Origin: Minisyncoccota bacterium | GTDB taxonomy: Bacteria; Patescibacteriota; Minisyncoccia; Phycocordibacterales; DATDWN01 | NCBI GenBank assembly: GCA_036517395.1 | Contig: DATDWN010000016.1 | Coordinates: 11,262-75,261, forward strand | DNA: 64,000 nt | Reading direction: 5' to 3' | Shown here: in pieces, positions 4,346 to 59,668 of the stretch | Numbering within the stretch: position 1 is the stretch's first letter | Layout of the letters: the number at the start of each line of letters is the position of its first letter | The notes under the pieces: model-generated | What the model was told of the DNA's origin: nothing | What the model saw: only the letters and a program-made list of their open reading frames with translations | The model's database searches: none | Made by a program: the position numbers and the translations under genes

Positions 4346-4791
4346 ATTAATATCAAGTGACAAGAAGACAGTAGCTTTTTAGCTAAACTGAATTTGTCCC
4401 TAGTGAGGTGCCGGTAGCTAGTGCGATGGCGACTGGTATAGTCTTGGAGCCTGTGCTGATGCTGGTGGCTATGAGGGGTGTTTTCTAAACTGAAAATGAA
4501 TTAACCAAAGTATATATCTGTCAAAAAATAAGTCAATCCTATTATCCACCACCTTGAATAAAAGTAATTACTCTGACATGATTAAATTACAACTTAATAA
4601 AAAGTTGACCTAACCCCCATAGTTTTCTGTGGGATATGGTCAAAAACCGGTAAGAGACAAAGAACCCATCATATAGGGCTACTCTTACCGGTCCCTGCGG
4701 GAAACTGCAGGTGGAGGACCTCGGTCCTCACCTATGTGGTGGGCTTTTTGTGTCCAAAATACGAATTATTTTTATTATTAAATAAATTATT

Positions 4792-11595: not shown

Positions 11596-11698
11596 TGAGC
11601 TGGATAGGACTCGAACCTATATCATGACCTTAGAATGGTCAGCCCTGGGGAGGGTATAGTTTTCAAGACTACTGTTCTATCCATTGAACTACCAGCCC
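11596..11698 (-). tRNA. atypical tRNA, anticodon UGA (Ser-like) with extra hairpin; ~103 nt
   Basis: Reverse complement folds: acceptor GGGCTGG/CCAGCTC, D-arm GTTC-AATGGATA-GAAC, anticodon arm GTAGT-CTTGAAA-ACTAT, variable hairpin CCCT-CCCC-AGGG, an additional TGACC-ATTCTAA-GGTCA hairpin, T-arm ATAGG-TTCGAGT-CCTAT. Confidence 0.55.
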
Positions 11699-12757
11699 AC
11701 ATCCTACTCCAAAATTTGGAGTAGAGAAAAACCAATTAAAGTTTTTTCTTTTTATCAGAAGTGCCTTTCTTCTTTGCGGGAGGGGGCATTTTCTGTTTTT
11801 CCTCGTCAACTTCAAAACAAAACGCTCTCAGACCTTTTTCCCATGCATAAAGTATTTTTCCGTTACGCAAAGTAATAAAAGGTCTACATATGAGTGTAGC
11901 CACTTTATTTTATCTATCTGTATCCTAATAATGCCTTTGCTCTTTAGGCGAGCCGTTACGGCTGACACAATTTTCCGTTGGTATAGTTTAGATTACTTAT
12001 TATATAGCTAATCTTATAAACCCAACTCGGCTTTTTGCTTTAGGAACGATTTAGTGGACAGCACTCTGGGAGTTACCCCTCAAGTTTACACCTGGGAAAG
12101 TTTCCTTCCCCAAAATGCTTTCCACCAAATCTTTCAAAAAACATCTTGTCGAGTGCTGTCCACCAATGACTTATTCATCGGTACCATAATTATACTACAT
12201 ACAGTTTTCATTGCAAATAAAATTTCAATATAAAGTTGTGGACAGCCCAAAAAATCAGAAAAATAAAAAATAGATTTTGACTAATCTGTTTTTATAGAAA
12301 AGCTTGGGTAGGGTATGTACCCCCCCACCCCAAAAACACCCTTTATTGCATGGGATGACCTATTGGCGGTATTTCCTCACCACCCCCTGCCAAAGTCGGG
12401 GGTAGATGCACCTCCACCCCCTGGACCATATACGAAGCTTGGAGCGTGTTATGTTAAGATTGGTACATAAAACATTGTGTTTTGGCTCTCATACCAAGTT
12501 CTAACAGCCTCAACAGTGTTCCGCATATACGACGAACCCCACGCGCTCAGCTTACGCGTGGGGACAGGCTGGTAGCTCTCAGGAGAACAGTGATACTACC
12601 AACCATCGAAGAAGGAACGGGAAACCGAAGACGATCACTATGGTCATGATGACCATGCCAAGCAGTAGGGCTTGGCCGTCATGCTCAGTGCAAGACTCGG
12701 GACTGGTCACAATTACCCTCCACTATTCTTTTTACTACAAAACCAATTTTTAATCAA

Positions 12758-25299: not shown

Positions 25300-25440
25300 A
25301 TATCCGCACACTAACTTTGCTCTCGTTGCATTCAGTCTCAAAATATAGATGTATATCTTAGATTTAGATATAATTTCTAACTTTTGCTTGATTGTTAATG
25401 TGGCAACAGGGAGACAAGAGCAAAGTTAGTGTGCGGATAA
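25300..25440. repeat. family A MITE-like element, copy 1 (TIR TATCCGCACACTAACTTTGCTCT), abuts dnaX ATG
   Basis: Terminal inverted repeats; right end GTGTGCGGATAAATATG includes the dnaX start codon. Confidence 0.8.
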
Positions 25441-30312: not shown

Positions 30313-31440
30313 ATGAATGAGACCCGTACATATTATCGAAACAAAGTTGTTTCCAATTTGTACAGAAATCTTCTCAAACCAGTTTTTTTTCACAATGACC
30401 CGGAGTTTGTTCATGATTGCATGACAGGATTTGGTGCTTTTTTGGGTCGCTATACTTTGGGGCAGAGAATGACAAAAAGTTTTTTTGATTATGAAAATTC
30501 GGCTTTAATACAGGATGTGCTAGGTATTAGTTTCAGAAATCCCATTGGTCTCTCGGCGGGTTTTGATAAAAATGCAGAGCTTGTAGATATTTTGCCGTCT
30601 GTTGGGTTTGGTTTTGCTGAAATCGGCTCTATCACCGGAAACCCGTGTTTAGGAAATGCTAAACCTCGACTGTGGCGTTTGCCAAAATCCAAAAGTCTCC
30701 TCGTTTATTATGGTTTAAAAAATGACGGCTGTGTGGCTATCGCAGAAAAACTGCATGATAAGTTTTTTACCATCCCGATGGGCATGAGTATTGCCATGAC
30801 GAATTGCGAGGAGAATTTGGTTCTAGAAAATGCCATAAAAGATTACGCAAAAGCTTTTGCCACTATGGAGCCTTTTGGTAACTACATAACTATAAATATT
30901 AGTTGTCCGAATGCTCTCGGTGGTCAGCCCTTTATTGCTCCAGACAAACTTGAACACTTATTGGACACTTTAGACAAGATTCCTAGTCAAAAACCAATTT
31001 TTATTAAACTCTCCCCTGATCTCAGTAATGCAGAGTTAGACGCTCTTCTTGATGTTGCTCGTCGTCACAGGGTTCACGGTATTATTTGCACAAACTTGAG
31101 CAAAAAAAGAGACAATCCAAAAATCATCGACGCTGGTATACCTTCAAAGGGTGGTTTCAGTGGCAAAGTAGTTCAACAGCTTTCTGATGACATGCTCTCT
31201 TATATTTACAAAAAAGAGGGACAGAGATTTATTCTTGTTGGCTGTGGCGGAGTTTTCACGGCGGAAGATGCTTACAAAAAAATCCGGCTTGGAGCATCTC
31301 TTGTCCAGTTGATTACCGGAATGATTTTTGAAGGCCCACAGGTCATAAGCCAGATTAATCAAGGCCTTGCGGAACTGTTAAAACGAGATGGTTTTGCCAA
31401 TATTAAAGAGGCTGTTGGTGTGGATTCATCCACACACTAA
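30313..31440 (+). CDS. pyrD: dihydroorotate dehydrogenase (quinone, class 2)
   Basis: 'GLSAGFDKNAE', 'GFAEIGSIT', 'ITINISCPN', 'GCGGVFTAEDAYKKIRLGASLVQL'. The last 4 codons and stop lie in the MITE repeat. Confidence 0.9.
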   Translation: MNETRTYYRNKVVSNLYRNLLKPVFFHNDPEFVHDCMTGFGAFLGRYTLGQRMTKSFFDYENSALIQDVLGISFRNPIGLSAGFDKNAELVDILPSVGFGFAEIGSITGNPCLGNAKPRLWRLPKSKSLLVYYGLKNDGCVAIAEKLHDKFFTIPMGMSIAMTNCEENLVLENAIKDYAKAFATMEPFGNYITINISCPNALGGQPFIAPDKLEHLLDTLDKIPSQKPIFIKLSPDLSNAELDALLDVARRHRVHGIICTNLSKKRDNPKIIDAGIPSKGGFSGKVVQQLSDDMLSYIYKKEGQRFILVGCGGVFTAEDAYKKIRLGASLVQLITGMIFEGPQVISQINQGLAELLKRDGFANIKEAVGVDSSTH

Positions 31441-31500
31441 CTTTGGTATTGTGTATTTTCAAAACGTGGTGAAGTAATGTAAAAGTTAGTGTGTGGATAA
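31428..31500. repeat. family A element, copy 2 (short, ~73 bp)
   Basis: ATCCACACACTAA...TTAGTGTGTGGATAA; the left TIR provides the pyrD stop codon. Confidence 0.75.
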
Positions 31501-42438: not shown

Positions 42439-42590
42439 TCACATTCACAGCGTCCGAACGAGGAGTAACAATGGTAAAAACCCCGCCCCTCTGGGGCGGA
42501 ACAGGGGTCCAGGGCTTGCCATGGGGTTTCATACCATTGATCCGCACACTAATTCTGCCATGGTCCTGTTTTGAAATAATCCTAAAATAA
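42403..42590. repeat. 140-bp structured repeat (family C), copy 2, after msrB; mini-ORF 42471-42590
   Basis: Two substitutions versus copy 1; the one inside the mini-ORF is synonymous (CCC to CCA). Confidence 0.8.
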
Positions 42591-42677
42591 ATATCCATAA
42601 AATTTATTACAGTATATTGTTACAAATTCTGAAATTTAGTCAGGACAAAAAACAATGGCAGATTTAGTGTGCGGATG
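42541..42677. repeat. family A element, copy 3
   Basis: TCCGCACACTAATTCTGCCATGGTCCTG ... CAGGACAAAAAACAATGGCAGATTTAGTGTGCGGATG. Confidence 0.8.
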
Positions 42678-43262: not shown

Positions 43263-43401
43263 TTATCCGCACACTAAATATGCCATCGTCCTGTTTTTAA
43301 ATAATATAAAAATAAATATCTTCTAATTTATCACAGTATATTGTTACAAATTATAAAACTAAGTCAGGACAAAAAACAATGGCAGAATTAGTGTTCGGAT
43401 G
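43263..43401. repeat. family A element, copy 4 (same orientation as copy 3, ~85% identical)
   Basis: TTATCCGCACACTAAATATGCCATCGTCCTG ... GGCAGAATTAGTGTTCGGATG. Confidence 0.8.
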
Positions 43402-48373: not shown

Positions 48374-48450
48374 AACCCGCACACTAAAATTGGCATCGTC
48401 GGGATTACCGACAGTACAAAACATAATGCCAATATTAGTGTGCGGGTAAA
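48374..48450. repeat. family A element, copy 5 (short) in the xseA-xseB junction
   Basis: AACCCGCACACTAAAATTGGCAT...ATGCCAATATTAGTGTGCGGGTAAAC. Confidence 0.75.
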
Positions 48451-49428: not shown

Positions 49429-49571
49429 TTTATCCGCACACTAACTTCTGTCTCGTTACCTGTGCAATGTATTAAAAGTTTATATAATTCTATTCCGCTA
49501 ATAATTATTATACCATGACAAATCTATAACAGGTAACAAAATGCACAAGATAGAAGTTAGTGTGCGGACAG
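49429..49571. repeat. family A element, copy 6, abuts LOG start (minus strand)
   Basis: Reverse complement of the left end reads GTGTGCGGATAAATTATG, which is the LOG start. Confidence 0.8.
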
Positions 49572-49603: not shown

Positions 49604-50353
49604 TTACAACCCAACACTTTTCAAAAATACATTCAACTCCTCTCCAACTATTTCTCGGTAAGTGTTTTGAGCGATTTTTCCCAGTTCTATATTTTGAACA
49701 CGAACTCTTCGAAGATCTCGAACAGTGTACCCAAGCTTCTCGGTCATTCTTCTCAACTGGCGATTCTTGCCTTCAGTTAGCACAATGCTGAAAAAATTTT
49801 CCGACAGCTTTTTCACTATTGCCGGTTTAGTCACCCCATCTCCAATGTTCACCCCATCTTGCATGTGTTTCAGAAATGCCGGTGTAAATTTTCTATCAAC
49901 TTCTACAATATATTCTTTCTCATGATCATGCGCGGGGTTGAGAAGTCGGTCGGTTATCCTACCGTCGTTTGTCATAATCAATAGCCCGTAAGACTCCTTG
50001 TCCAGTCTCCCAACAGGGAACACCCCTGCGGGGAACTTTGCGCTCTGCATTATTCCTTTCTCTTTTTCTTGAGGGTTTGTACTGACTACCCCTCTCGGTT
50101 TGTTGTAGGCCAGATAAATGAGCTTCTTTTTTGTATGCACTCCTCTGATTTCCACATTGTCGCTTTCCATAACTTTATCACCGAGGATTGCCACTCGTCC
50201 GTTTATTAGAACCTTCTTACTTTTTATAAGCTCATCCACTCCCGTGCGAGTGGCTACGCCTTTGTGGGCGAGGTATTTATTTATCCGCACACCAACTCTG
50301 GCATCGCTTTTTGTGTTCTGGCTTAGTTTTGTAGCGTATTTTTTATTTTTCAT
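49604..50353 (-). CDS. rluB: rRNA pseudouridine synthase (RsuA/RluB family, S4 + catalytic domain)
   Basis: S4 'RINKYLAHKGVATRTGVDELI', catalytic 'PVGRLDKESYGLLIMTNDG'. The N-terminal ~24 codons lie inside a MITE copy, so the true start is uncertain. Confidence 0.8.
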   Translation of the reverse strand: MKNKKYATKLSQNTKSDARVGVRINKYLAHKGVATRTGVDELIKSKKVLINGRVAILGDKVMESDNVEIRGVHTKKKLIYLAYNKPRGVVSTNPQEKEKGIMQSAKFPAGVFPVGRLDKESYGLLIMTNDGRITDRLLNPAHDHEKEYIVEVDRKFTPAFLKHMQDGVNIGDGVTKPAIVKKLSENFFSIVLTEGKNRQLRRMTEKLGYTVRDLRRVRVQNIELGKIAQNTYREIVGEELNVFLKSVGL

Positions 50354-50424
50354 AAATTGATTTCAAGGGATAATTTTAGTTAAAAAGCAGAACAATGCTA
50401 GAGTTGGTGTGCGGGTTTATCCTC
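50281..50424. repeat. family A element, copy 7, contains the rluB 5' end
   Basis: TTATCCGCACACCAACTCTGGCATCGC ... GCTAGAGTTGGTGTGCGGGTTTATCC. Confidence 0.75.
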
Positions 50425-50443: not shown

Positions 50444-50577
50444 TTACCCACACACTAAATCTGCCATTGTTTTGTCCTGGTTCTGTCTATAATCTGCTAT
50501 TATACATTATAGTAGATTTGTAAGTGTTGTATAATATTATAAAAAAAGGACGATGGCAGAATTAGTGTGTGGGTTTA
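50444..50577. repeat. family A element, copy 8 (tandem with copy 7, upstream of the FKBP gene)
   Basis: TTTACCCACACACTAAATCTGCCATTGTTTTGTCCTGG ... GACGATGGCAGAATTAGTGTGTGGGTTTAC. Confidence 0.75.
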
Positions 50578-51622: not shown

Positions 51623-52909
51623 GTGAAATCTTTTTCTTTTGATATACATTCTGAACTTCCAAATTCTCTCGGACGAGTTGGTACAATACACACTCCACAT
51701 GGTGACATACAAACACCGGCATTTGTCGCAGTTGGAACAAAAGGCACGGTAAAAAGTTTGACGCCGGAACAGGTCGCAGATACTGGCACACAAGTCATAA
51801 TCGCAAATACATATCATTTATATTTAGAGCCCGGAGACGAAAAGATAAAAAATATTGGAGGGTTGCACAAAGCGATGAACTGGTCTGATCCTCTTATGAC
51901 CGACTCTGGCGGCTTCCAAGTTTTTTCTCTAGGTGTCGCATATGGCAAAAAGATTAGCAAAGTTTCAAAAAAAGATGAACTAATACTATCCAAGCCTCTC
52001 CCTATGTCCGACATAGGGAGATTTGCGGAAACAAGACTTCAACAAGATGAGGCAGTACCAAAGATTGCTCGAATTGATTCCAATGGGGTAATGTTCCGCG
52101 ATCATATATCGGGCAGCGCTCACTATTTTACTCCGGAAAAATCGATAGAGATTCAGCACAATCTCGGCGCAGATATTATTTTTGCCTTTGACGAATGCAC
52201 CTCACCTCATGAGTCGCTTCATTATCAGAAAGAAGCGCTTGAGAGAACTCACCGCTGGGCTCGACGTTCTCTTGAACATCATTCCGACATTCTCAAGAAT
52301 GTCGGAATGAATGGCCCTGCGATTTTTGGCATTGTGCAGGGCGGGCGAGATGAAACCTTGCGTAAAGAAAGTGCAAAATATATGGCAGATTTAAGGGCCG
52401 GAGGTCCTGAACGAAGCGAAGGATTCGACGGTTTCGGAATAGGCGGATCATTTGAAAAAGAAGATATGAGCAAGGCAGTAGAATGGTGCAATCAGATTTT
52501 GCCAAGAGAGAAGCCAAGGCATCTGCTTGGTATCGGCGAGCCAACCGATTTATTTATGGCGGTTGAGTTCGGGTGTGATTTGTTTGACTGTGTTTCACCC
52601 ACTCGTATCGCTCGAAACGGCGGAGTTTATACAAAAGAAGGAAGAGTCAATTTACTGAATCAAGAATTTCGAGAAGATTCAAAACCTCTCGACCAAGGTT
52701 GTCTCTGCTACACATGCAAAAACTTTTCGTGCGCTTATGTTGCACATCTCTTTCATGCAAAAGAAATTTTGGCTTATACGCTGGCATCAATACACAACCT
52801 TTATTTTATAACTCACATGGTGGATGGTATGCGCGAGACTATGCAAAGCGGGGATTTTGAAAGCTACAAAAAAGATTTTTTAAGTAAATACTACAGGACT
52901 AATTTGTGA
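51623..52909 (+). CDS. tgt: queuine tRNA-ribosyltransferase
   Basis: 'LMTDSGGFQVFSL', 'DCVSPTRIARNGG', Zn site 'CLCYTCKNF...H'; carries a 30-bp palindromic segment at 52290-52319. Confidence 0.9.
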   Translation: MKSFSFDIHSELPNSLGRVGTIHTPHGDIQTPAFVAVGTKGTVKSLTPEQVADTGTQVIIANTYHLYLEPGDEKIKNIGGLHKAMNWSDPLMTDSGGFQVFSLGVAYGKKISKVSKKDELILSKPLPMSDIGRFAETRLQQDEAVPKIARIDSNGVMFRDHISGSAHYFTPEKSIEIQHNLGADIIFAFDECTSPHESLHYQKEALERTHRWARRSLEHHSDILKNVGMNGPAIFGIVQGGRDETLRKESAKYMADLRAGGPERSEGFDGFGIGGSFEKEDMSKAVEWCNQILPREKPRHLLGIGEPTDLFMAVEFGCDLFDCVSPTRIARNGGVYTKEGRVNLLNQEFREDSKPLDQGCLCYTCKNFSCAYVAHLFHAKEILAYTLASIHNLYFITHMVDGMRETMQSGDFESYKKDFLSKYYRTNL

Positions 52910-52921
52910 TATATTAGGCGA

Positions 52922-55021
52922 ATGCAGTTTAAAATACACAGGGAGTTCGAGCCCGCGGGGGATCAGCCCAAAGCTATTGAAGCATTAGTTGATGGAGTAA
53001 AAAAAGGTCTGAAACATCAGACACTTTTTGGTGTGACTGGATCCGGTAAAACTTTCACGGTAGCAAACGTCATACAAGAAATCCAAAAACCAACTCTGGT
53101 CATCGCCCACAACAAAACTCTAGCCGCTCAGCTGGCTCAGGAATATCGCGAATTTTTCCCGAACAACGCCGTGCATTATTTTGTTTCTTATTACGACTAC
53201 TACCAACCCGAGGCCTACATGCCCGTCTCTGACACATATATAGAGAAGGAAGCAATGATAAATGAGGAGATTGAGAGACTTCGTCACGCTTCGACGCAGG
53301 CTCTTCTCACACGAAAGGATGTTATCATCGTCGCCTCAGTTTCTTGCATCTATGGCCTCGGTTCTCCCGTCGAATATGAAAAAGTAAATATGAAAATAGC
53401 CGTGGGACAGGAAATTTCTCGGGCGGAATTTATCAGAAGTTTAGTTGATGTCCATTTTGAGAGGACTAGCGCAGATCTTTCGTCGGGACAATTTCGAGCC
53501 ATAGGGAACATGTTAGAAATTATGCCGATTTCAGAAAAAAATATTTACCGTATTGAAATCGAGGCCGGCAACCACAGTACCAGAGCAAAGCTCGGTACGG
53601 GGCATAGAATAAAACAAATATTGGAAATTGACTCGATTACTCGAAGTATAGTAAGAGAAGTCAGCGCATTTTTTCTTTTTCCCGCCAAACATTTCATTTC
53701 CACGAAAGAGCAAAACGAAAGAGCCTTCAAATCTATCAAAGCGGAACTGACCGAGCGACTAAAAGAATTAGAAAAAGAAGGCAAGTTGCTCGAAGCGGAA
53801 AGGCTGAAGAGACGCACGACTTATGACTTGGCTCTTATCCGCGAGATGGGATATTGCAACGGCATAGAAAACTACTCTCGGCATTTTTCTGGGAAGATGG
53901 CGGGAGAAGCGCCTGACACTTTGCTTTCATATTTTCCCCACAAGGCCGACGGTTCGGCAGATTTTTTGACGATTATCGATGAGTCTCACGTTACGGTTCC
54001 GCAAATAGGTGCTATGTATGGAGGGGATTCATCTCGAAAACAGTCGCTTGTTGATTTCGGATTTCGATTACCAAGCGCAAAAGACAACAGGCCTTTGAAA
54101 TTTAAAGAGTTTGAAGAGAGGATGGGACAGTGTATATATACGAGCGCCACCCCGAATGATTATGAAAGAGAACACTCACAGCAGACCGTGGAGCAGGTTA
54201 TACGACCGACGGGTCTTATTGATCCAGTTGTTGAGGTTCGACCAATAGTATCCTCCCCGAGGTCTGACCTTGGGAAATTAGATGTTAAAGGTCAGACCTC
54301 TGGAATTCCGTATCCGGGTCAAATAAAAGATTTCATACAAGAATCCGAGAAAGCCATAAAAAAAGGTGGGAGGGTTATAGCCACAACTCTAACTAAAAAG
54401 ATGGCAGAAGATTTAAGCGAATATTTGAAAGAGGGGAATATTAAAGCGGAATATTTGCACAGTGATATAAAAACAATACAGCGCATTGAGATACTGACAG
54501 CTTTTCGTCGCGGTGAATTTGATATTTTAGTCGGAGTGAATTTGCTTCGAGAAGGTTTGGATTTGCCGGAGGTGACGCTTATTGGTATTTTGGAAGCGGA
54601 TAAAGAAGGATTTCTACGAAGCGAAACTTCTCTTATACAAATTATAGGTCGTGCGGCGCGAAATGTAGATGGAAAAGTCATTTTGTACGCCGATCACATG
54701 ACCGGTTCGATGGAGTATGCCATAAACGAGACAAACCGCAGACGCGCTCTGCAAGTGGACTACAACACAAAACACGGTATCACTCCGAAAACTATAATAA
54801 AAAAGATTCAGGACATAACCGACCAGATGAAGACAGAACATGCGAAAACTGTGAGCGATTTACTCGAAATTGATAAAAAACTATTTGAAAAAGATCCACA
54901 GAAATTGATAAAGCAAAAAGAAAAACAAATGGAGGGAGCTGTGAAAATCTTGGACTTTGAGACGGCCGCTATCTTGCGTGACGAGGTTTTGGAATTACAG
55001 AGGTTACTTGGAAAAAAATGA
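52922..55021 (+). CDS. uvrB: excinuclease ABC subunit B
   Basis: 'GDQPKAI', 'GVTGSGKTFT', helicase motifs, C-terminal UvrB/C interaction 'AAILRDEVLELQ'. Confidence 0.95.
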   Translation: MQFKIHREFEPAGDQPKAIEALVDGVKKGLKHQTLFGVTGSGKTFTVANVIQEIQKPTLVIAHNKTLAAQLAQEYREFFPNNAVHYFVSYYDYYQPEAYMPVSDTYIEKEAMINEEIERLRHASTQALLTRKDVIIVASVSCIYGLGSPVEYEKVNMKIAVGQEISRAEFIRSLVDVHFERTSADLSSGQFRAIGNMLEIMPISEKNIYRIEIEAGNHSTRAKLGTGHRIKQILEIDSITRSIVREVSAFFLFPAKHFISTKEQNERAFKSIKAELTERLKELEKEGKLLEAERLKRRTTYDLALIREMGYCNGIENYSRHFSGKMAGEAPDTLLSYFPHKADGSADFLTIIDESHVTVPQIGAMYGGDSSRKQSLVDFGFRLPSAKDNRPLKFKEFEERMGQCIYTSATPNDYEREHSQQTVEQVIRPTGLIDPVVEVRPIVSSPRSDLGKLDVKGQTSGIPYPGQIKDFIQESEKAIKKGGRVIATTLTKKMAEDLSEYLKEGNIKAEYLHSDIKTIQRIEILTAFRRGEFDILVGVNLLREGLDLPEVTLIGILEADKEGFLRSETSLIQIIGRAARNVDGKVILYADHMTGSMEYAINETNRRRALQVDYNTKHGITPKTIIKKIQDITDQMKTEHAKTVSDLLEIDKKLFEKDPQKLIKQKEKQMEGAVKILDFETAAILRDEVLELQRLLGKK

Positions 55022-55050
55022 TTTTATGATATTCTGTGTGAGGAGGGGTT

Positions 55051-55152
55051 ATGATGCACATTCTCGCCTGGGCATTTGTGCCGGTGCTTGTGATTCTGGT
55101 TTTCGGGTCTGTGCTGAATCTCAGCACAACCAAGATCACCAAGCGCTGAATA
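55051..55152 (+). CDS. 33-aa GC-rich hydrophobic mini-ORF with strong SD (MMHILAWAFVPVLVILVFGSVLNLSTTKITSAE)
   Basis: AGGAGG 4-5 nt upstream; single TM helix; followed by hairpin GGCGGGTC-GACCA-GACCCGCC and a T-rich tail. Confidence 0.4.
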
Positions 55153-55162
55153 GGTTTTGAGG

Positions 55163-55200
55163 CGGCGGGTCGACCAGACCCGCCGTTCGTCGTATTTGTG
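55163..55200 (+). terminator. intrinsic terminator-like hairpin after the mini-ORF
   Basis: 8-bp GC stem followed by TTCGTCGTATTTGTGTG. Confidence 0.45.
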
Positions 55201-55252
55201 TGTTTGTGGTAAGATATTGTCCTCACCCAATAGGCAGTCGGGGAGTTTATTT

Positions 55253-55394
55253 GCATGTCCGCACACCAACTTTGGCATTGTCTCTTTGTTGCTAGGTTAG
55301 GAATTACATCAAATTTTAGATGTATATCTATATATGGATGTATGTATAAACTCTGAGACAGGGCAATGATGCCAAAGTTGGTGTGCGGATAAAT
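55253..55394. repeat. family A element, copy 9, abuts uvrA ATG
   Basis: CATGTCCGCACACCAACTTTGGCATTGTCTC ... GATGCCAAAGTTGGTGTGCGGATAAATATG. Confidence 0.8.
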
Positions 55395-58013
55395 ATGAAA
55401 AATGAAGGTTTAATCATCGTTAAAGGGGCGCGGACCCATAACTTGAAAAATATCACAGTCGAAATGCCACGGAACAAAATGATGGTTTTTACCGGTTTGT
55501 CTGGCTCGGGCAAATCCTCTCTGGCTTTTGATACTATATTTGCCGAGGGACAGAGACGATACGTTGAGTCTTTGTCCTCATACGCTCGACAATTTTTGCG
55601 TCAGATGCAAAAGCCGGATGTGGACGAAATATCCGGCCTCTCCCCTGCCATTTCCATTGATCAGAAATCTCGTTCAAACAACCCACGATCGACCGTGGCC
55701 ACTATCACAGAAATTTACGACTACTTGCGTATTTTGTATTCACGCATCGGCCATCCGCATTGTTTGGTTTGTGGCGATGAAATCACAAAGCTCTCGAACG
55801 AAGAAATTAAGAATTTTGTCTTGGAGAAAATTTCTAATTATCTTACACCAACACGAAGTGTTGGCACAGAAAGGTATAAGGCGTCAGCTACGACAGAAAT
55901 ATACGCTCCGGTGGTTAAGGGTCGCAAGGGTGAATATTATCAAATGCTTTATGACTTGCTAGGCAAAGGCTACTCGCATGTCCTTATAGACGGTGAGAAA
56001 AAATCACTTCGAGAGAAAATTGAACTTTCGAAAACAAAAAGACATGTTATAGATGTGCTTGTGGATAGTATTTCTCTATTAGATTTTAGGATAGATAAAA
56101 AAAGCGCAGAAGAGAGGCTGTCGGAAGATTTGGAAAAGGCGCTTGGTGAGTCGGATGGTCAGGTCAAAGTGGTTTTCCGAGATATGGCCCTTGAAAAAAA
56201 CAAGGACTATAAGCCCGAAAAAGTTTTCATGTCCTCCAAGCTGTCGTGTCCCAAAGATGGCTACTCCTATCCTGAAGTCGAACCACGGCTTTTTTCTTTC
56301 AACTCTCCTTATGGTGCCTGTCAAGAATGTAATGGTTTGGGCACACGACATTTTTTCGGCAAGGAAGCTTGTCCCAAGTGTAAGGGCGCTCGTCTGCGCG
56401 AGGAAGCGCTTCACGTTTTGATTGGAAAGCGCAATATCGTCGAGCTGACTGCGATGTCCATAAAAGATGCTTATGATTTCGTAACAAATTTAAAACTGAC
56501 AGAACGAGAGAAAAATATTTCCAAAGTTGTTATGCGAGAAATCGAGTCACGACTTCTTTTTATGATTAATGTCGGTATTGAATATCTTTCTCTGGACAGG
56601 CGTGCTCACACTCTTTCTGGCGGAGAAGCTCAGAGAATTCGCCTAGCATCCCAACTTGGTTCCGGACTTGTTGGCGCTCTGTATGTTCTTGACGAGCCCA
56701 CTATCGGACTACACTCTCGCGATAACGATCGGCTAGTTAAAACACTTCTTAACCTGCGAGATCTAGGAAACACTATTATTGTGGTCGAGCACGATGAAGA
56801 CACTATTTTCGCCTCGGATTATATTGTTGATATCGGGCCTCGTGCCGGAGTTCACGGTGGCCATGTTGTTGTGGCGGATTATCTAGACAAACTAATCACG
56901 GCAAAAACTAATCCTTCTGGATCTCTGACGCTCGACTATTTGCGCGGAGATAAAGTTCTGGAAGTGCCAGAAGAGAGACGAACATATCCAAAAGGCGATC
57001 TACAAATCCGTGGTGGAAAGATTTTTAATATAAAAAATATGAACGTCGATATTCCGCTCGGCAGATTTATTGCCGTCACAGGCGTTTCTGGCTCGGGCAA
57101 GTCTTCTTTTGTTTACGAAATTCTGCACAAAAACCTCCAAGCGCGTTTTGAGAGAAAATATCGCTCGGCAGAAATTTTTAACTGCAAATCTTTCACTGGC
57201 ACAGAATATCTAGGCAGGGCGATTTTGATAGATCAATCCCCAATAGGTCGAACGCCTCGATCGAACCCAGCGACATACACAGGTTCGTGGACATTTATTC
57301 GGGATTTATTCGCCGAATCAGCCGAAGCTCGAGCTCGTGGTTGGAAAGCCAATAGATTTTCTTTCAATGTGAAGGGTGGTCGATGCGAAACATGTCAGGG
57401 TAACGGTATGATAGAAGTGGAGATGCATTTCTTGCCGACTGTTTATGTGCCGTGCGATGTCTGCAAAGGTAAAAGATTTATGAAAGAGACCTTGGAAGTG
57501 CATTATAAGAAAAAAAATATTTATGATGTGTTGAAAATGACCGTGGAGGAGGCGTTAAAGTTTTTTGAAGATATCCCGTCGATATACGATCGTCTGAAAT
57601 CAATGGATGATGTTGGTCTTGGCTATCTCGAGCTCGGGCAGAGCGCCACAACTCTTTCTGGTGGCGAAGCTCAGAGAGTGAAAATATCCTCAGAGCTTTA
57701 TCGTCCGCATTTACAAAAAACTATTTATCTTTTGGACGAGCCAACTATCGGTTTGCACTATGAAGATGTCAAAAAATTAATCGAGATTTTGCAAAAGCTT
57801 GTGAACAAAGGAAACACCGTTCTTGTCATCGAGCACAATATGGATATTATAAAGTCGTGTGACTATGTTTTGGACATAGGCCCAGAGGGTGGAGATGGTG
57901 GGGGGCAACTGGTGGCCAAAGGTACACCTGAGGAAGTAGCGGAGAATGAGAAGTCGTACACTGGTAAGTATTTAAAGAAAGCACTTAAACAATATAAGGC
58001 GTATAGGAAATAA
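55395..58013 (+). CDS. uvrA: excinuclease ABC subunit A
   Basis: '[10 protein letters not shown]', two ABC modules '[14 protein letters not shown]' / 'GVSGSGKSS', 'LSGGEAQR' x2, Zn fingers. ATG at 55395 is fused to the MITE repeat (alternative GTG at 55383). Confidence 0.95.
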
Positions 58014-58020
58014 ACAAAAC

Positions 58021-58044
58021 GGCGCCGAGGTTGTCCTCGGCGCC
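58021..58044 (+). terminator. perfect 10-bp GC hairpin after uvrA (GGCGCCGAGG-TTGT-CCTCGGCGCC)
   Basis: Seen directly; lacks a U-tract. Confidence 0.4.
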
Positions 58045-58062
58045 TACCAGACTCATCCAGGC

Positions 58063-58236
58063 TTATCGTCGCCGAAGCCGAATCGTGTCACAGATCTCGT
58101 CGATGATGCAACCAAGCATGGTCAGCCCTGCTCCCAAAGCGAGAGTATGACGAATCGTCATCATGTCCGCTGTGAGCAACACTATCGCCATCTCGAGAAG
58201 TGCAAACCACAGGTTGTTTCGTTGCCTCTCAGTCAT
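58063..58236 (-). CDS. 57-aa GC-rich small membrane protein with strong SD (MTERQRNNLWFALLEMAIVLLTADMM...)
   Basis: AGGAGGG 4 nt upstream of the ATG on the minus strand; two hydrophobic helices; GC-rich versus flanks. Confidence 0.4.
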   Translation of the reverse strand: MTERQRNNLWFALLEMAIVLLTADMMTIRHTLALGAGLTMLGCIIDEICDTIRLRRR

Positions 58237-58270
58237 GAGCCCTCCTACTTCGTATAATATCATATTTATA

Positions 58271-59668
58271 ATGAATAATCGAAATATTAAAAAAGTAATA
58301 TCTAAATTCCCGGATTCTCCTGGGGTGTATATTTTCCTTGGCTCGCCGAAACGTAGTGGAGGCGGCAAGTCCAAAAGTGAAATTCTTTACATAGGCAAAG
58401 CCACATCCCTCCGTGACCGAGTTAGAACTTACATGTCAAGGACAGTCCTTGACACTCGAAGTCCACTCATAGCTAAGATGCTGGAGGAGTTTGAAGATAT
58501 CGAATACATAAAAACAGATTCTGTTTTGGAAGCACTTGTTTTGGAAGCCAATCTCATAAAAAAACACCAGCCGGAAGCAAATATAAAAGAAAAAGATAAT
58601 AAAAGTTTTAACTTTGTTGTGATTACCAAAGAAGATTTTCCTCGTGTTTTAGTTATCCGCGGTCGTGAACTGCTGCAATCGCGCATTATGTCAAGGACGC
58701 CCCTTGCCAAAAATTCAAAAATGGCAAAGGGCGTCTTTGACATTAAAAATCAGTTCGGTCCATTTCCAAACGGCGGACAGCTGAAGGAAGCACTGAAAAT
58801 AATTCGCAAGATGTTTCCGTATCGGGATAAGTGTAATTCTGCGGAAGTCCGACTTCCGCAGAAAACGTATTCAGGGAAGCGACCGAGCGGGAACGATGGG
58901 AGTACTGAGGCCAACAGGCCGAATGTAGCCTGTTTTAATCGTCAGATAGGTTTGTGTCCAGGAGTTTGTACAGGAGAAATTACAAAAGAGGATTATCAGA
59001 AACAAATCCAAAATATTATTTTGTTTTTTCGGGGTAATAAAAAGCGATTGCTGAAAAACCTTGAGAAACAAATGCGAGGTTTCGCAAAAAATCGAGAGTT
59101 TGAGAAAGCCGGCGAAGCTAAAAAAACAATTTTTCTTCTAAAACATATTCAGGATATATCGCTTATAAAAGAAGATTGCAAAGGTTCGACCTTAAAGAAT
59201 GGTGCCCAAGGTCGAACCTTGGATTCAGAGACATTCCGAATCGAATCTTATGATGTCGCACACATGTCTGGACAAAATGTTGTTGGGGTTATGATTGTTG
59301 TCGAGGATGGTGAAGTGAAGAAGTCTGATTATAGGAAGTTCAAAATAAAAAACAATCCAAGTGTAAACGATACTAAAGCCTTGACAGAAGTACTGTCGAG
59401 AAGGTTGGCACATATAGAATGGCGATTTCCTGATTTGATTGTTGTCGATGGAGGGACGGCGCAAAAGAGAGTGATGGAAAAGATTTTGCGGGAGAATAAA
59501 GTGAATATTCCCGTTGTTTCTGTTGTCAAAGATGAGAGACATAAACCGAAGAATATACTAGGTGACAGACAGTGGTTAAAATATGAGAGAGAAATAATTC
59601 TAGCAAACAGCGAATCACATAGATTTGCTATTGGATATCATAGAAAGCTCAGAGGGAAGTTTGGATAA
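58271..59668 (+). CDS. uvrC: excinuclease ABC subunit C (short form, lacks C-terminal HhH)
   Basis: GIY-YIG 'GVYIF...ILYIGKATSLRDRV', UvrBC-binding 'LLKNLEKQMRGFAKNREFEKAGEAKK', RNaseH-like endonuclease domain. ATG at 58271 preferred over the track start. Confidence 0.85.
   Translation: MNNRNIKKVISKFPDSPGVYIFLGSPKRSGGGKSKSEILYIGKATSLRDRVRTYMSRTVLDTRSPLIAKMLEEFEDIEYIKTDSVLEALVLEANLIKKHQPEANIKEKDNKSFNFVVITKEDFPRVLVIRGRELLQSRIMSRTPLAKNSKMAKGVFDIKNQFGPFPNGGQLKEALKIIRKMFPYRDKCNSAEVRLPQKTYSGKRPSGNDGSTEANRPNVACFNRQIGLCPGVCTGEITKEDYQKQIQNIILFFRGNKKRLLKNLEKQMRGFAKNREFEKAGEAKKTIFLLKHIQDISLIKEDCKGSTLKNGAQGRTLDSETFRIESYDVAHMSGQNVVGVMIVVEDGEVKKSDYRKFKIKNNPSVNDTKALTEVLSRRLAHIEWRFPDLIVVDGGTAQKRVMEKILRENKVNIPVVSVVKDERHKPKNILGDRQWLKYEREIILANSESHRFAIGYHRKLRGKFG

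Follow-up and report, generated by a model that had tools for sequence, protein, structure and literature searches.

The DNA analysed here, called the window throughout, is a 64,000-nucleotide (nt) stretch of contig DATDWN010000016.1 from a Minisyncoccota bacterium, and the element in question is a small open reading frame (sORF) at 55051-55149 on its forward strand, between the excision-repair genes uvrB and uvrA. This sORF is probably a genuine, lineage-specific gene for a single-pass membrane peptide of 32 (or 31) residues, lying in a compact expression cassette in the interval from the uvrB stop codon to the uvrA promoter. As such it is the orphan representative of a kind of gene that is already known, the lineage-private small membrane protein. 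The original prediction for this DNA had offered three interpretations: a small membrane protein or regulator, a type I toxin, and a remnant of foreign DNA. The first of these fits the strong Shine-Dalgarno (SD) sequence, the single transmembrane (TM) helix, the basic tail, the sORF's own terminator, the presence of SD-led TM sORFs at this position in 15 of 21 close relatives and the purifying selection seen in some of them; the other two are not borne out.

The sORF and its product

The product of the sORF is MMHILAWAFVPVLVILVFGSVLNLSTTKITKR, and its stop codon is the TGA at 55147-55149. Two start codons are about equally plausible, ATG 55051, which lies 29 nt past the uvrB stop, and ATG 55054; they give 32 and 31 residues, respectively. 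The peptide has one hydrophobic segment, with a Kyte-Doolittle 19-residue maximum of 2.67 and a helix at approximately residues 4-24, followed by a C-terminal tail of charge +3, from which we predict an N-out/C-in topology. Gene callers have independently annotated a gene for exactly this peptide on three public contigs. In the whole window, both strands included, only four SD-led open reading frames (ORFs) of 20-120 amino acids (aa) with a TM segment could be found outside the large ORFs.

The observation behind the original prediction is confirmed with minor corrections. The site does lie between uvrB and uvrA, as judged by Pfam, AGGAGG does stand 4 nt ahead of ATGATG, and the hydropathy maximum bears out the single TM helix. 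The guanine-cytosine (GC) content is locally raised as claimed, at 0.553 for 55041-55190 against a window mean of 0.404, which places it in the 97th percentile of 150-nt windows. The length, given as 33 aa, is in fact 32, and the C-terminus was misread as ...TKITSAE where the true end is ...STTKITKR. The features of the locus, a Parcubacteria locus of the candidate phyla radiation (CPR) with the gene order tgt-uvrB-sORF-uvrA-uvrC-ddl (neighbours by Pfam), are as follows.

51623-52909, tgt (Pfam)
52922-55021, uvrB (Pfam)
55008-55035 (+), putative weak sORF promoter: -35 TTGGAA at 55008-55013, 16-nt spacer, TG at 55027-55028, -10 TATTCT at 55030-55035
55040-55048 (+), SD GAGGAGGGG, with AGGAGG at 55041-55046, 4 nt before ATG 55051 and 7 nt before ATG 55054
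55051-55149 (+), sORF, 32 aa, one TM helix and a basic tail (translation, hydropathy, gene calls on three public contigs)
55161-55187 (+), intrinsic-terminator-like hairpin GGCGGCGGGTC-GACCA-GACCCGCCGTT, T-rich tail to ~55206, -22 kcal/mol
55207-55215 (+), uvrA extended -10 box TGgTAAGAT, TGTGGTAAGAT, matching the uvrA box of relatives
55222-55245 (+), uvrA leader hairpin CTCACCC/GGGGAG, conserved with compensatory changes
55395-58013, uvrA (Pfam)

Expression signals of the sORF

The SD sequence had been described as the strongest in the window. It is strong, without being unique, since GAGGAGG occurs eight times on the + strand; a start codon follows at four of the eight sites, that of the sORF among them. 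In the predicted mRNA, the SD is paired only weakly, by 5 base pairs (bp), in the minimum free energy structure, and the centroid fold leaves it unpaired.

The candidate promoter lies over the end of uvrB, including its final codons and stop, and its -10 element ends 15 nt before the ATG, leaving a very short leader of ~10-20 nt. We propose it because 13 of 16 related cassettes carry a match of at least 9 of the 12 hexamer positions at the equivalent place. No terminator was found between uvrB and the sORF, so that read-through from tgt-uvrB is also possible and may be the main source of transcription. At the other end, the GC hairpin terminator that had been noted stands as a hairpin, with a GC stem of 10-11 bp beginning 12 nt past the sORF stop; its tail, TTCGTCGTATTTGTGTGTTTG, is T-rich but interrupted, and a long T run is absent. 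Read on the minus strand, the hairpin is followed by no T run, and the terminator is unidirectional.

The RNA of the coding region was also found to be structured. The segment 55082-55148 folds into an unusually stable hairpin (z = -4.0 against mononucleotide shuffles), and comparable structure is seen in 4 of 13 positional analogues, including those of the related loci L089 (z = -3.7), L006 (-3.1) and L007 (-4.9), and is lacking in the other nine. Such a fold could serve mRNA stability or translation control, or it could belong to a dual-function RNA. A long-range SD/anti-SD pairing of 55035-55044 with 55220-55229 was considered and rejected, because the supposed anti-SD lies beyond the terminator, where it forms the 5' arm of the conserved hairpin in the uvrA leader.

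The uvrB-uvrA slot in related genomes

The best relatives of the UvrB protein among species-representative genomes are metagenome-assembled Parcubacteria/Paceibacteria of the Zambryskibacteria-like type, at no more than 82% identity. A scan for nearer relatives raised this to at most 89% for the UvrB C-terminus in metagenome contigs, and gave no copy of the sORF at intermediate distance. We examined 160 related loci (given L-numbers here), 21 of which form a non-redundant set of close loci with UvrB identity of at least 77%. Spacers between uvrB and uvrA in these relatives range from 47 to ~4400 bp, and the 70 that measure 90-1300 bp were scanned for ORFs of 20-120 aa with an SD and a TM segment.

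Such SD-led TM ORFs were present on the + strand in 21 of the 70 spacers and on the - strand in one, and every + strand case had a UvrB identity of at least 77%. Among the 21 close loci, 15 spacers are occupied, by 22 ORFs in all. The spacers total 9.9 kb and thus have 2.2 such ORFs per kb, whereas the remaining non-coding strand of the same loci, 53.8 kb, has 14, or 0.26 per kb; the enrichment is ~8.5-fold. Shared base composition does not explain the slot ORFs, because the minus strands of the same spacers are without them.

The occupants resemble one another in layout. They start 29-96 nt past the uvrB stop, and every one has a GGAGG-type SD. A sigma-70-like hexamer pair matching at least 9 of 12 positions lies upstream in 13 of 16 cassettes, where 2.2 would be expected and the minus strand has 0 of 16; its -35 element (TTGACA or TTGCTA) often falls directly past the uvrB stop codon. 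Most cassettes end in a GC hairpin with a T tail 3' of the sORF (for example L009, L010, L013, L090, L085, L006 and L005), and the C-terminal tails are net positive in nearly all the analogues. By these features the sORF of the window belongs to the clade's cassettes: it is on the + strand, encodes fewer than 120 aa, starts less than 100 nt from the uvrB stop, has a GGAGG-type SD and a TM segment, and is followed by a terminator before the uvrA promoter.

Three internally homologous subfamilies could be recognised among the occupants, namely L009/L089/L090 (to which L010 attaches), L091/L092 and L006/L007, with pairwise z of 5-14. In these subfamilies the nonsynonymous divergence (dN) is 0.40-0.59 and the synonymous divergence (dS) is above 1.3 or saturated. 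With dN well below dS, it can be deduced that at least some slot occupants are maintained protein-coding genes. Sequence homology of the window sORF to other slot occupants was not demonstrated, with pairwise z of its peptide against the analogues no higher than 2.4. There is one hint of orthology, in that the 3' arm and tail of the window terminator (GACCCGCCGTTCGTCGTATTTGTG) resemble those of L010 (GACCCGCCGGTTCGTCGCTTATTTTG); both ORFs also begin ATG-CAC. This suggests that the window and L010 cassettes could be orthologues that diverged in place. Conservation in relatives, on which the original prediction had staked its reading, is absent for the peptide sequence and present for position and architecture, and a translation signal is there.

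A possible role for the peptide

In the simplest scheme, the sORF would be transcribed from the weak promoter over the 3' end of uvrB, by read-through from tgt-uvrB, or by both, and the transcript would end at the hairpin 55161-55187. The peptide would then insert into the cytoplasmic membrane N-out/C-in, with its KITKR tail inside, and might there modulate a larger membrane protein or process. We favour a modulator role because most characterised bacterial small membrane proteins act in this way. The slot is kept in the clade while the peptide sequence turns over fast, and the selected property would be a short TM helix with a basic tail expressed at this place.

Known modulators of this type, such as AcrZ, MgtS, KdpF and CydX, have fewer than 50 aa and one TM helix, lack a signal peptide, end in a short charged tail and act on larger complexes. 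They are often lineage-restricted and missed by annotation, and the genes of most of them belong to the operon of the partner protein or adjoin it. In contrast, the neighbours of the sORF are soluble DNA-repair enzymes, and therefore suggest no partner for its peptide. Searches of Pfam and NCBIfam found no homology of the peptide to proteins of this type.

A small membrane-protein gene beside uvrBA has a precedent in csbA of Bacillus subtilis, which encodes a small putative membrane protein and directly adjoins them. Unlike the sORF product, CsbA is of ~76 aa, encoded upstream of uvrB and under sigma-B control, and it is not known to have sequence similarity to the sORF peptide. As for the host group, at least one TM helix has been reported in 76 of 106 CPR-enriched protein families (PMC6744442).

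The uvrA promoter and leader hairpin

Downstream of the sORF terminator, uvrA has expression signals of its own. The TGTGGTAAGAT box corresponds to TGTGGTAATAT / TGTGGTATTAT in L003, L004, L006, L008, L091, L092 and L109, and it is followed, across the Parcubacteria, by a stem-loop of consensus ACCCCUAKGG-loop-CCWAGGGG just 3' of the -10 box. Relatives without an sORF have spacers of 57-118 bp that hold only the uvrA promoter and this leader hairpin. From this conserved pair of elements 3' of the terminator we conclude that uvrA is an independent transcription unit and that the sORF is not its leader peptide. A search for the leader hairpin ahead of the sORF was negative, and nothing therefore points to co-regulation.

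The hairpin was aligned from centred seed windows; plain MAFFT with RNAalifold left the stems out of register and gave no structure. Eight hand-picked clean examples were used. Places where the stem-loop was recorded are:

window 55207-55245
L014 8064-8095
L028 10357-10388
L041 3315-3346
L063 8620-8651
L055 8243-8274
L069 6930-6962
L106 1756-1787

In the MAFFT alignment of the eight clean examples, 6 of 9 hairpin pairs show compensatory changes, and 90% of the stem cells are paired, versus 54% after a one-column shift of the partners. A covariance model built on these eight scored E below 0.01 only at uvrA leaders, the best match elsewhere in 1.5 Mb having E = 0.015, and no Rfam family was found for the hairpin. 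Some of the stem pairs are G-U, as would be expected of an RNA structure more than of a DNA operator. The stem-loop could be a 5' leader or regulatory element specific to uvrA.

Alternative explanations

Several results weigh against the sORF as a maintained gene. A HMMER search of 1.84 billion representative proteins returned only the sORF peptide itself and a 633-aa repetitive junk ORF. By tblastn nothing better than E 0.1-0.3 was found in the 160 related loci and the window (best in the 160 loci, 0.34), and a leave-one-out profile of the analogues scored the peptide at 2.3 bits, a value that 10.7% of shuffled peptides equal. The candidate promoter, with 8 of 12 hexamer positions plus the TG, is not significant alone (P = 0.26 against shuffles). 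The three contigs with the exact peptide are essentially one strain and are identical across the uvrB 3' end, the sORF and the spacer; as these same-strain copies are the only others, selection on this sORF is not measurable. At the level of the slot, 6 of the 21 close relatives have no SD-led TM ORF there, and the nominal Poisson P of ~1e-13 for the enrichment overstates independence because the loci are phylogenetically related. In more distant Parcubacteria, with UvrB identity of 70-74%, the slot holds an unrelated protein of ~265 aa that by eye resembles two receiver domains. The uvrB-uvrA junction is a variable cargo site, and the slot may simply be permissive.

The other homology searches were also negative. 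The peptide is a singleton cluster at 90% identity, and neither it nor any of 10 analogues had a significant match in Pfam, NCBIfam, PADLOC or PHROGs. The sole DNA match of the spacer by blastn against the 160 related loci was to the arms of a repeat at 55258-55389, with one copy in L005, and no tandem or duplicated copies of the sORF are present in the window. The homology search proposed with the original prediction therefore yielded no relative of the peptide beyond itself.

These results lend themselves to a reading of the sORF as a chance ORF, or a newly arisen "proto-gene", in a fast-changing spacer, with the hydrophobic frame a by-product of T-rich sequence. An orphan peptide in a singleton cluster, a spacer of highly variable length and content, a weak candidate promoter and same-strain copies that leave selection on the sORF beyond measurement are all compatible with it. 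However, a strong SD at the right distance, an ATG and a dedicated terminator coincide here, the slot ORFs are ~8.5-fold enriched with a strand ratio of 21 to 1, and dN is well below dS in the homologous slot subfamilies. We regard a chance origin as unlikely.

Another possibility is that the sORF encodes a DNA-damage-linked small membrane effector, induced together with the excision-repair genes, which, during repair, would block division through FtsW/FtsI-type binding or lower the membrane potential. SidA, for example, is a 29-aa inner-membrane, SOS-induced division inhibitor (PMC4211646). Like the sORF product, the proteins of the SidA/DidA (Caulobacter), YneA, SosA and ChiZ type are very small and single-pass. 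Small membrane DNA-damage checkpoint proteins share no homology between lineages (PMC6051672), which mirrors the architecture-only conservation and the sequence turnover in the uvrB-uvrA slot. The sORF sits within the uvrB-uvrA-uvrC cluster, small TM ORFs recur in the slot of relatives, and the minus strand carries another small membrane ORF with an SD between uvrA and uvrC, at 58063-58236.

The SidA/DidA/YneA class, however, has damage-inducible promoters (LexA or DriD) and binds FtsW, FtsI or FtsN, whereas genomic position is all that links the sORF to damage. No lexA gene was found nearby among the Pfam-assigned neighbours. A Gram-positive-type LexA box (CGAAC-N4-GTTCG, at most two mismatches) was not found at the sORF, uvrB or uvrA promoters, although this consensus may not be that of the host, and the window as a whole has 13 matches versus 18.8 expected by chance, hence no enrichment. 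Sanchez-Osuna, Barbe and Erill are said to have reported a LexA motif for the Patescibacteria in Environ Microbiol in 2017. In addition, the uvrA leader hairpin was not found upstream of the sORF, SD-led TM sORFs are found elsewhere in these genomes too, and two-component genes fill the slot in other relatives, so the position may carry no functional meaning. A DNA-damage role, whether of the SidA/DidA or the DinQ/TisB type, is a positional guess that only the place in the uvrB-uvrA-uvrC cluster suggests, and we think such an effector quite unlikely. The wider proposal, in which the uvrB-uvrA and uvrA-uvrC junctions of this clade would be dedicated slots for single-helix peptides that are replaced again and again, or diverge past recognition, with promoter, SD, topology and terminator retained, a CPR counterpart of SidA/DinQ checkpoint or membrane effectors, is likewise speculative and improbable.

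A type I toxin, whose translation would be checked by a cis- or trans-encoded antisense RNA, was among the original suggestions. The peptide is small (<60 aa), hydrophobic and single-TM, its size, helix and charged C-terminal tail recall toxins of the Fst, Ldr and DinQ type, its coding RNA is unusually structured, as in L089, L006 and L007, and type I toxins are typically orphan-like and fast-evolving. DinQ is a 27-aa LexA-controlled TM peptide with an antisense RNA (PMC3567139). Like the sORF, the SOS-induced systems dinQ/agrB and tisB/istR-1 of E. coli are intergenic and encode hydrophobic single-helix inner-membrane peptides of 27-29 aa, with a terminator a few nt past the stop (PMC3567139). 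Those systems, however, are equipped with LexA boxes, with genes for antisense small RNAs in divergent orientation, and with long 5' leaders that are processed and mask the ribosome-binding site; none of these is detectable at the sORF. The proposed search for an antisense promoter, run from -40 nt to +120 nt of the sORF, found no opposite-strand promoter-like site of at least 9/13 in the window or in 11 related cassettes; the scan was consensus-based, and a trans-encoded or atypical antitoxin lies outside its reach. The terminator does not work as one on the minus strand, and the leader of ~10-20 nt with an SD unpaired in the centroid fold is unlike the long SD-sequestering leaders of hok, tisB and dinQ. 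Nine of 13 analogues lack strong coding-RNA structure, searches of Pfam, NCBIfam and PADLOC gave no significant match to known toxin families (Hok, Ldr, Fst, TisB, DinQ, Ibs, ShoB, TxpA and others), and the sORF has no tandem or duplicated copies in the window. The toxin interpretation is very unlikely.

The least probable account, to which we give hardly any weight, is a leader peptide, attenuator or dual-function small RNA controlling read-through into uvrA, with a horizontally acquired remnant as a minor option: the terminator 12 nt past the sORF and upstream of uvrA, the 8-nt segment 55104-55111 within the sORF that can pair with 55175-55182 in the terminator 3' arm, and the local GC of 0.55 against 0.40 speak for it, but uvrA has its own promoter (55207-55215) and a covarying leader hairpin 3' of the terminator, sORF-less relatives keep both, the codons of the sORF include no regulatory-codon runs, and the TM character of the analogues would have no role in an attenuator. 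As regards foreign DNA, comparison with 50,697 phage and 72,556 plasmid records showed no similarity, no mobility gene is adjacent, the promoter-sORF-terminator layout is common to relatives, and the mobile-looking part of the spacer, its sole repeat, is a separate 132-nt insertion at 55258-55389.

Other features of the window and of the related loci

The ~265-aa putative double-receiver gene of the distant relatives was seen in spacers of ~850-970 bp in L021, L030, L034, L035, L039, L040, L044, L045, L053 and L073. It was also seen in spacers of ~2.4-2.6 kb (L020, L027, L028 and L058), and in some cases a histidine-kinase-like gene of ~475 aa stands ahead of it.

The second small membrane-protein gene and the other SD-led TM ORFs outside the large ORFs are:

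58063-58236 (-), 57 aa, MTERQRNNLWFALLEMAIVLLTADMMTIRHTLALGAGLTMLGCIIDEICDTIRLRRR, with an AGGAGGG SD and an extended -10 box TGATATTAT
12579-12710 (-), 43 aa
20404-20643 (+), 79 aa
48367-48561 (-), 64 aa

The gene at 58063-58236 and uvrA have a common bidirectional terminator at 58021-58045. Its 57-aa product has no homologue in the related loci, and other minus-strand small TM ORFs occur at the same place in relatives. It is overlapped by the 501-aa "uvrC" ORF, which is probably over-extended at its 5' end (window 58163-58271), as UvrC-like sequence starts at MNNRNIKKV..., ~58271. The 43-aa ORF has a GGAGG SD and resembles another small membrane-protein gene, and the 64-aa ORF, part of which falls in an inverted-repeat element, could be spurious. 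In uvrA itself, the same-strain contig L081 is identical to the window over 3.5 kb save two short, densely substituted patches, at window 56795-56933 and 57872-57911; the substitutions are mostly at third codon positions, and the patches are due either to alleles that recombined in a mosaic or to a chimeric assembly.

The 132-nt element at 55258-55389 has perfect 21-nt terminal inverted repeats and is an insertion in the uvrA 5' leader, where it separates the leader hairpin from the uvrA ATG. It is one of nine intergenic hairpin repeats of ~130 or ~70 nt with conserved terminal inverted repeats (TCCGCACACYAAYTYTG...):

copy 1, 25303-25437
copy 2, 31429-31497
copy 3, 42541-42675
copy 4, 43266-43399
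copy 5, 48376-48446
copy 6, 49433-49568
copy 7, 50284-50415
copy 8, 50447-50573
copy 9, 55258-55389

The two arms of each copy co-vary, and the interiors are AT-rich and unrelated between copies. Arm matches number 19 against 1.2 in shuffles. The family is nearly private to this genome, the 160 related loci giving one pair (L005) and two lone arms, and it resembles the miniature inverted-repeat transposable element (MITE) or repetitive extragenic palindrome (REP) type and is not in Rfam. Matches of the spacer to Rfam miRNA precursors were dismissed as generic matches to the long inverted-repeat hairpin, with nothing real behind them. Elsewhere, a full-length match to the LOOT RNA model (Rfam RF03000) lies at 4607-4729 on the + strand (71.8 bits, E = 1.5e-11). 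A tRNA match at 11596-11698 (-) spans 103 nt against a 71-position model, which suggests an intron or an unusually long insertion.

Implications

As matters stand, the sORF is a hypothetical small gene of the ordinary sort. Should its peptide be made, it would be one more unannotated, lineage-private small membrane protein in a CPR genome. The most interesting aspect is the conservation at the level of the slot, which offers a natural case of architecture kept through near-complete sequence turnover: position, strand, SD, one TM helix, basic tail and terminator are retained. Conservation of this sort escapes homology-based annotation and bears on the birth and replacement of small genes. If the link to the excision-repair genes is true, it would suggest that uncultivated episymbiotic bacteria have a checkpoint mechanism for DNA damage. 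And if the junctions do serve as checkpoint slots, organisms whose regulatory repertoire is minimal would have genome repair coupled to division or to the state of the membrane.

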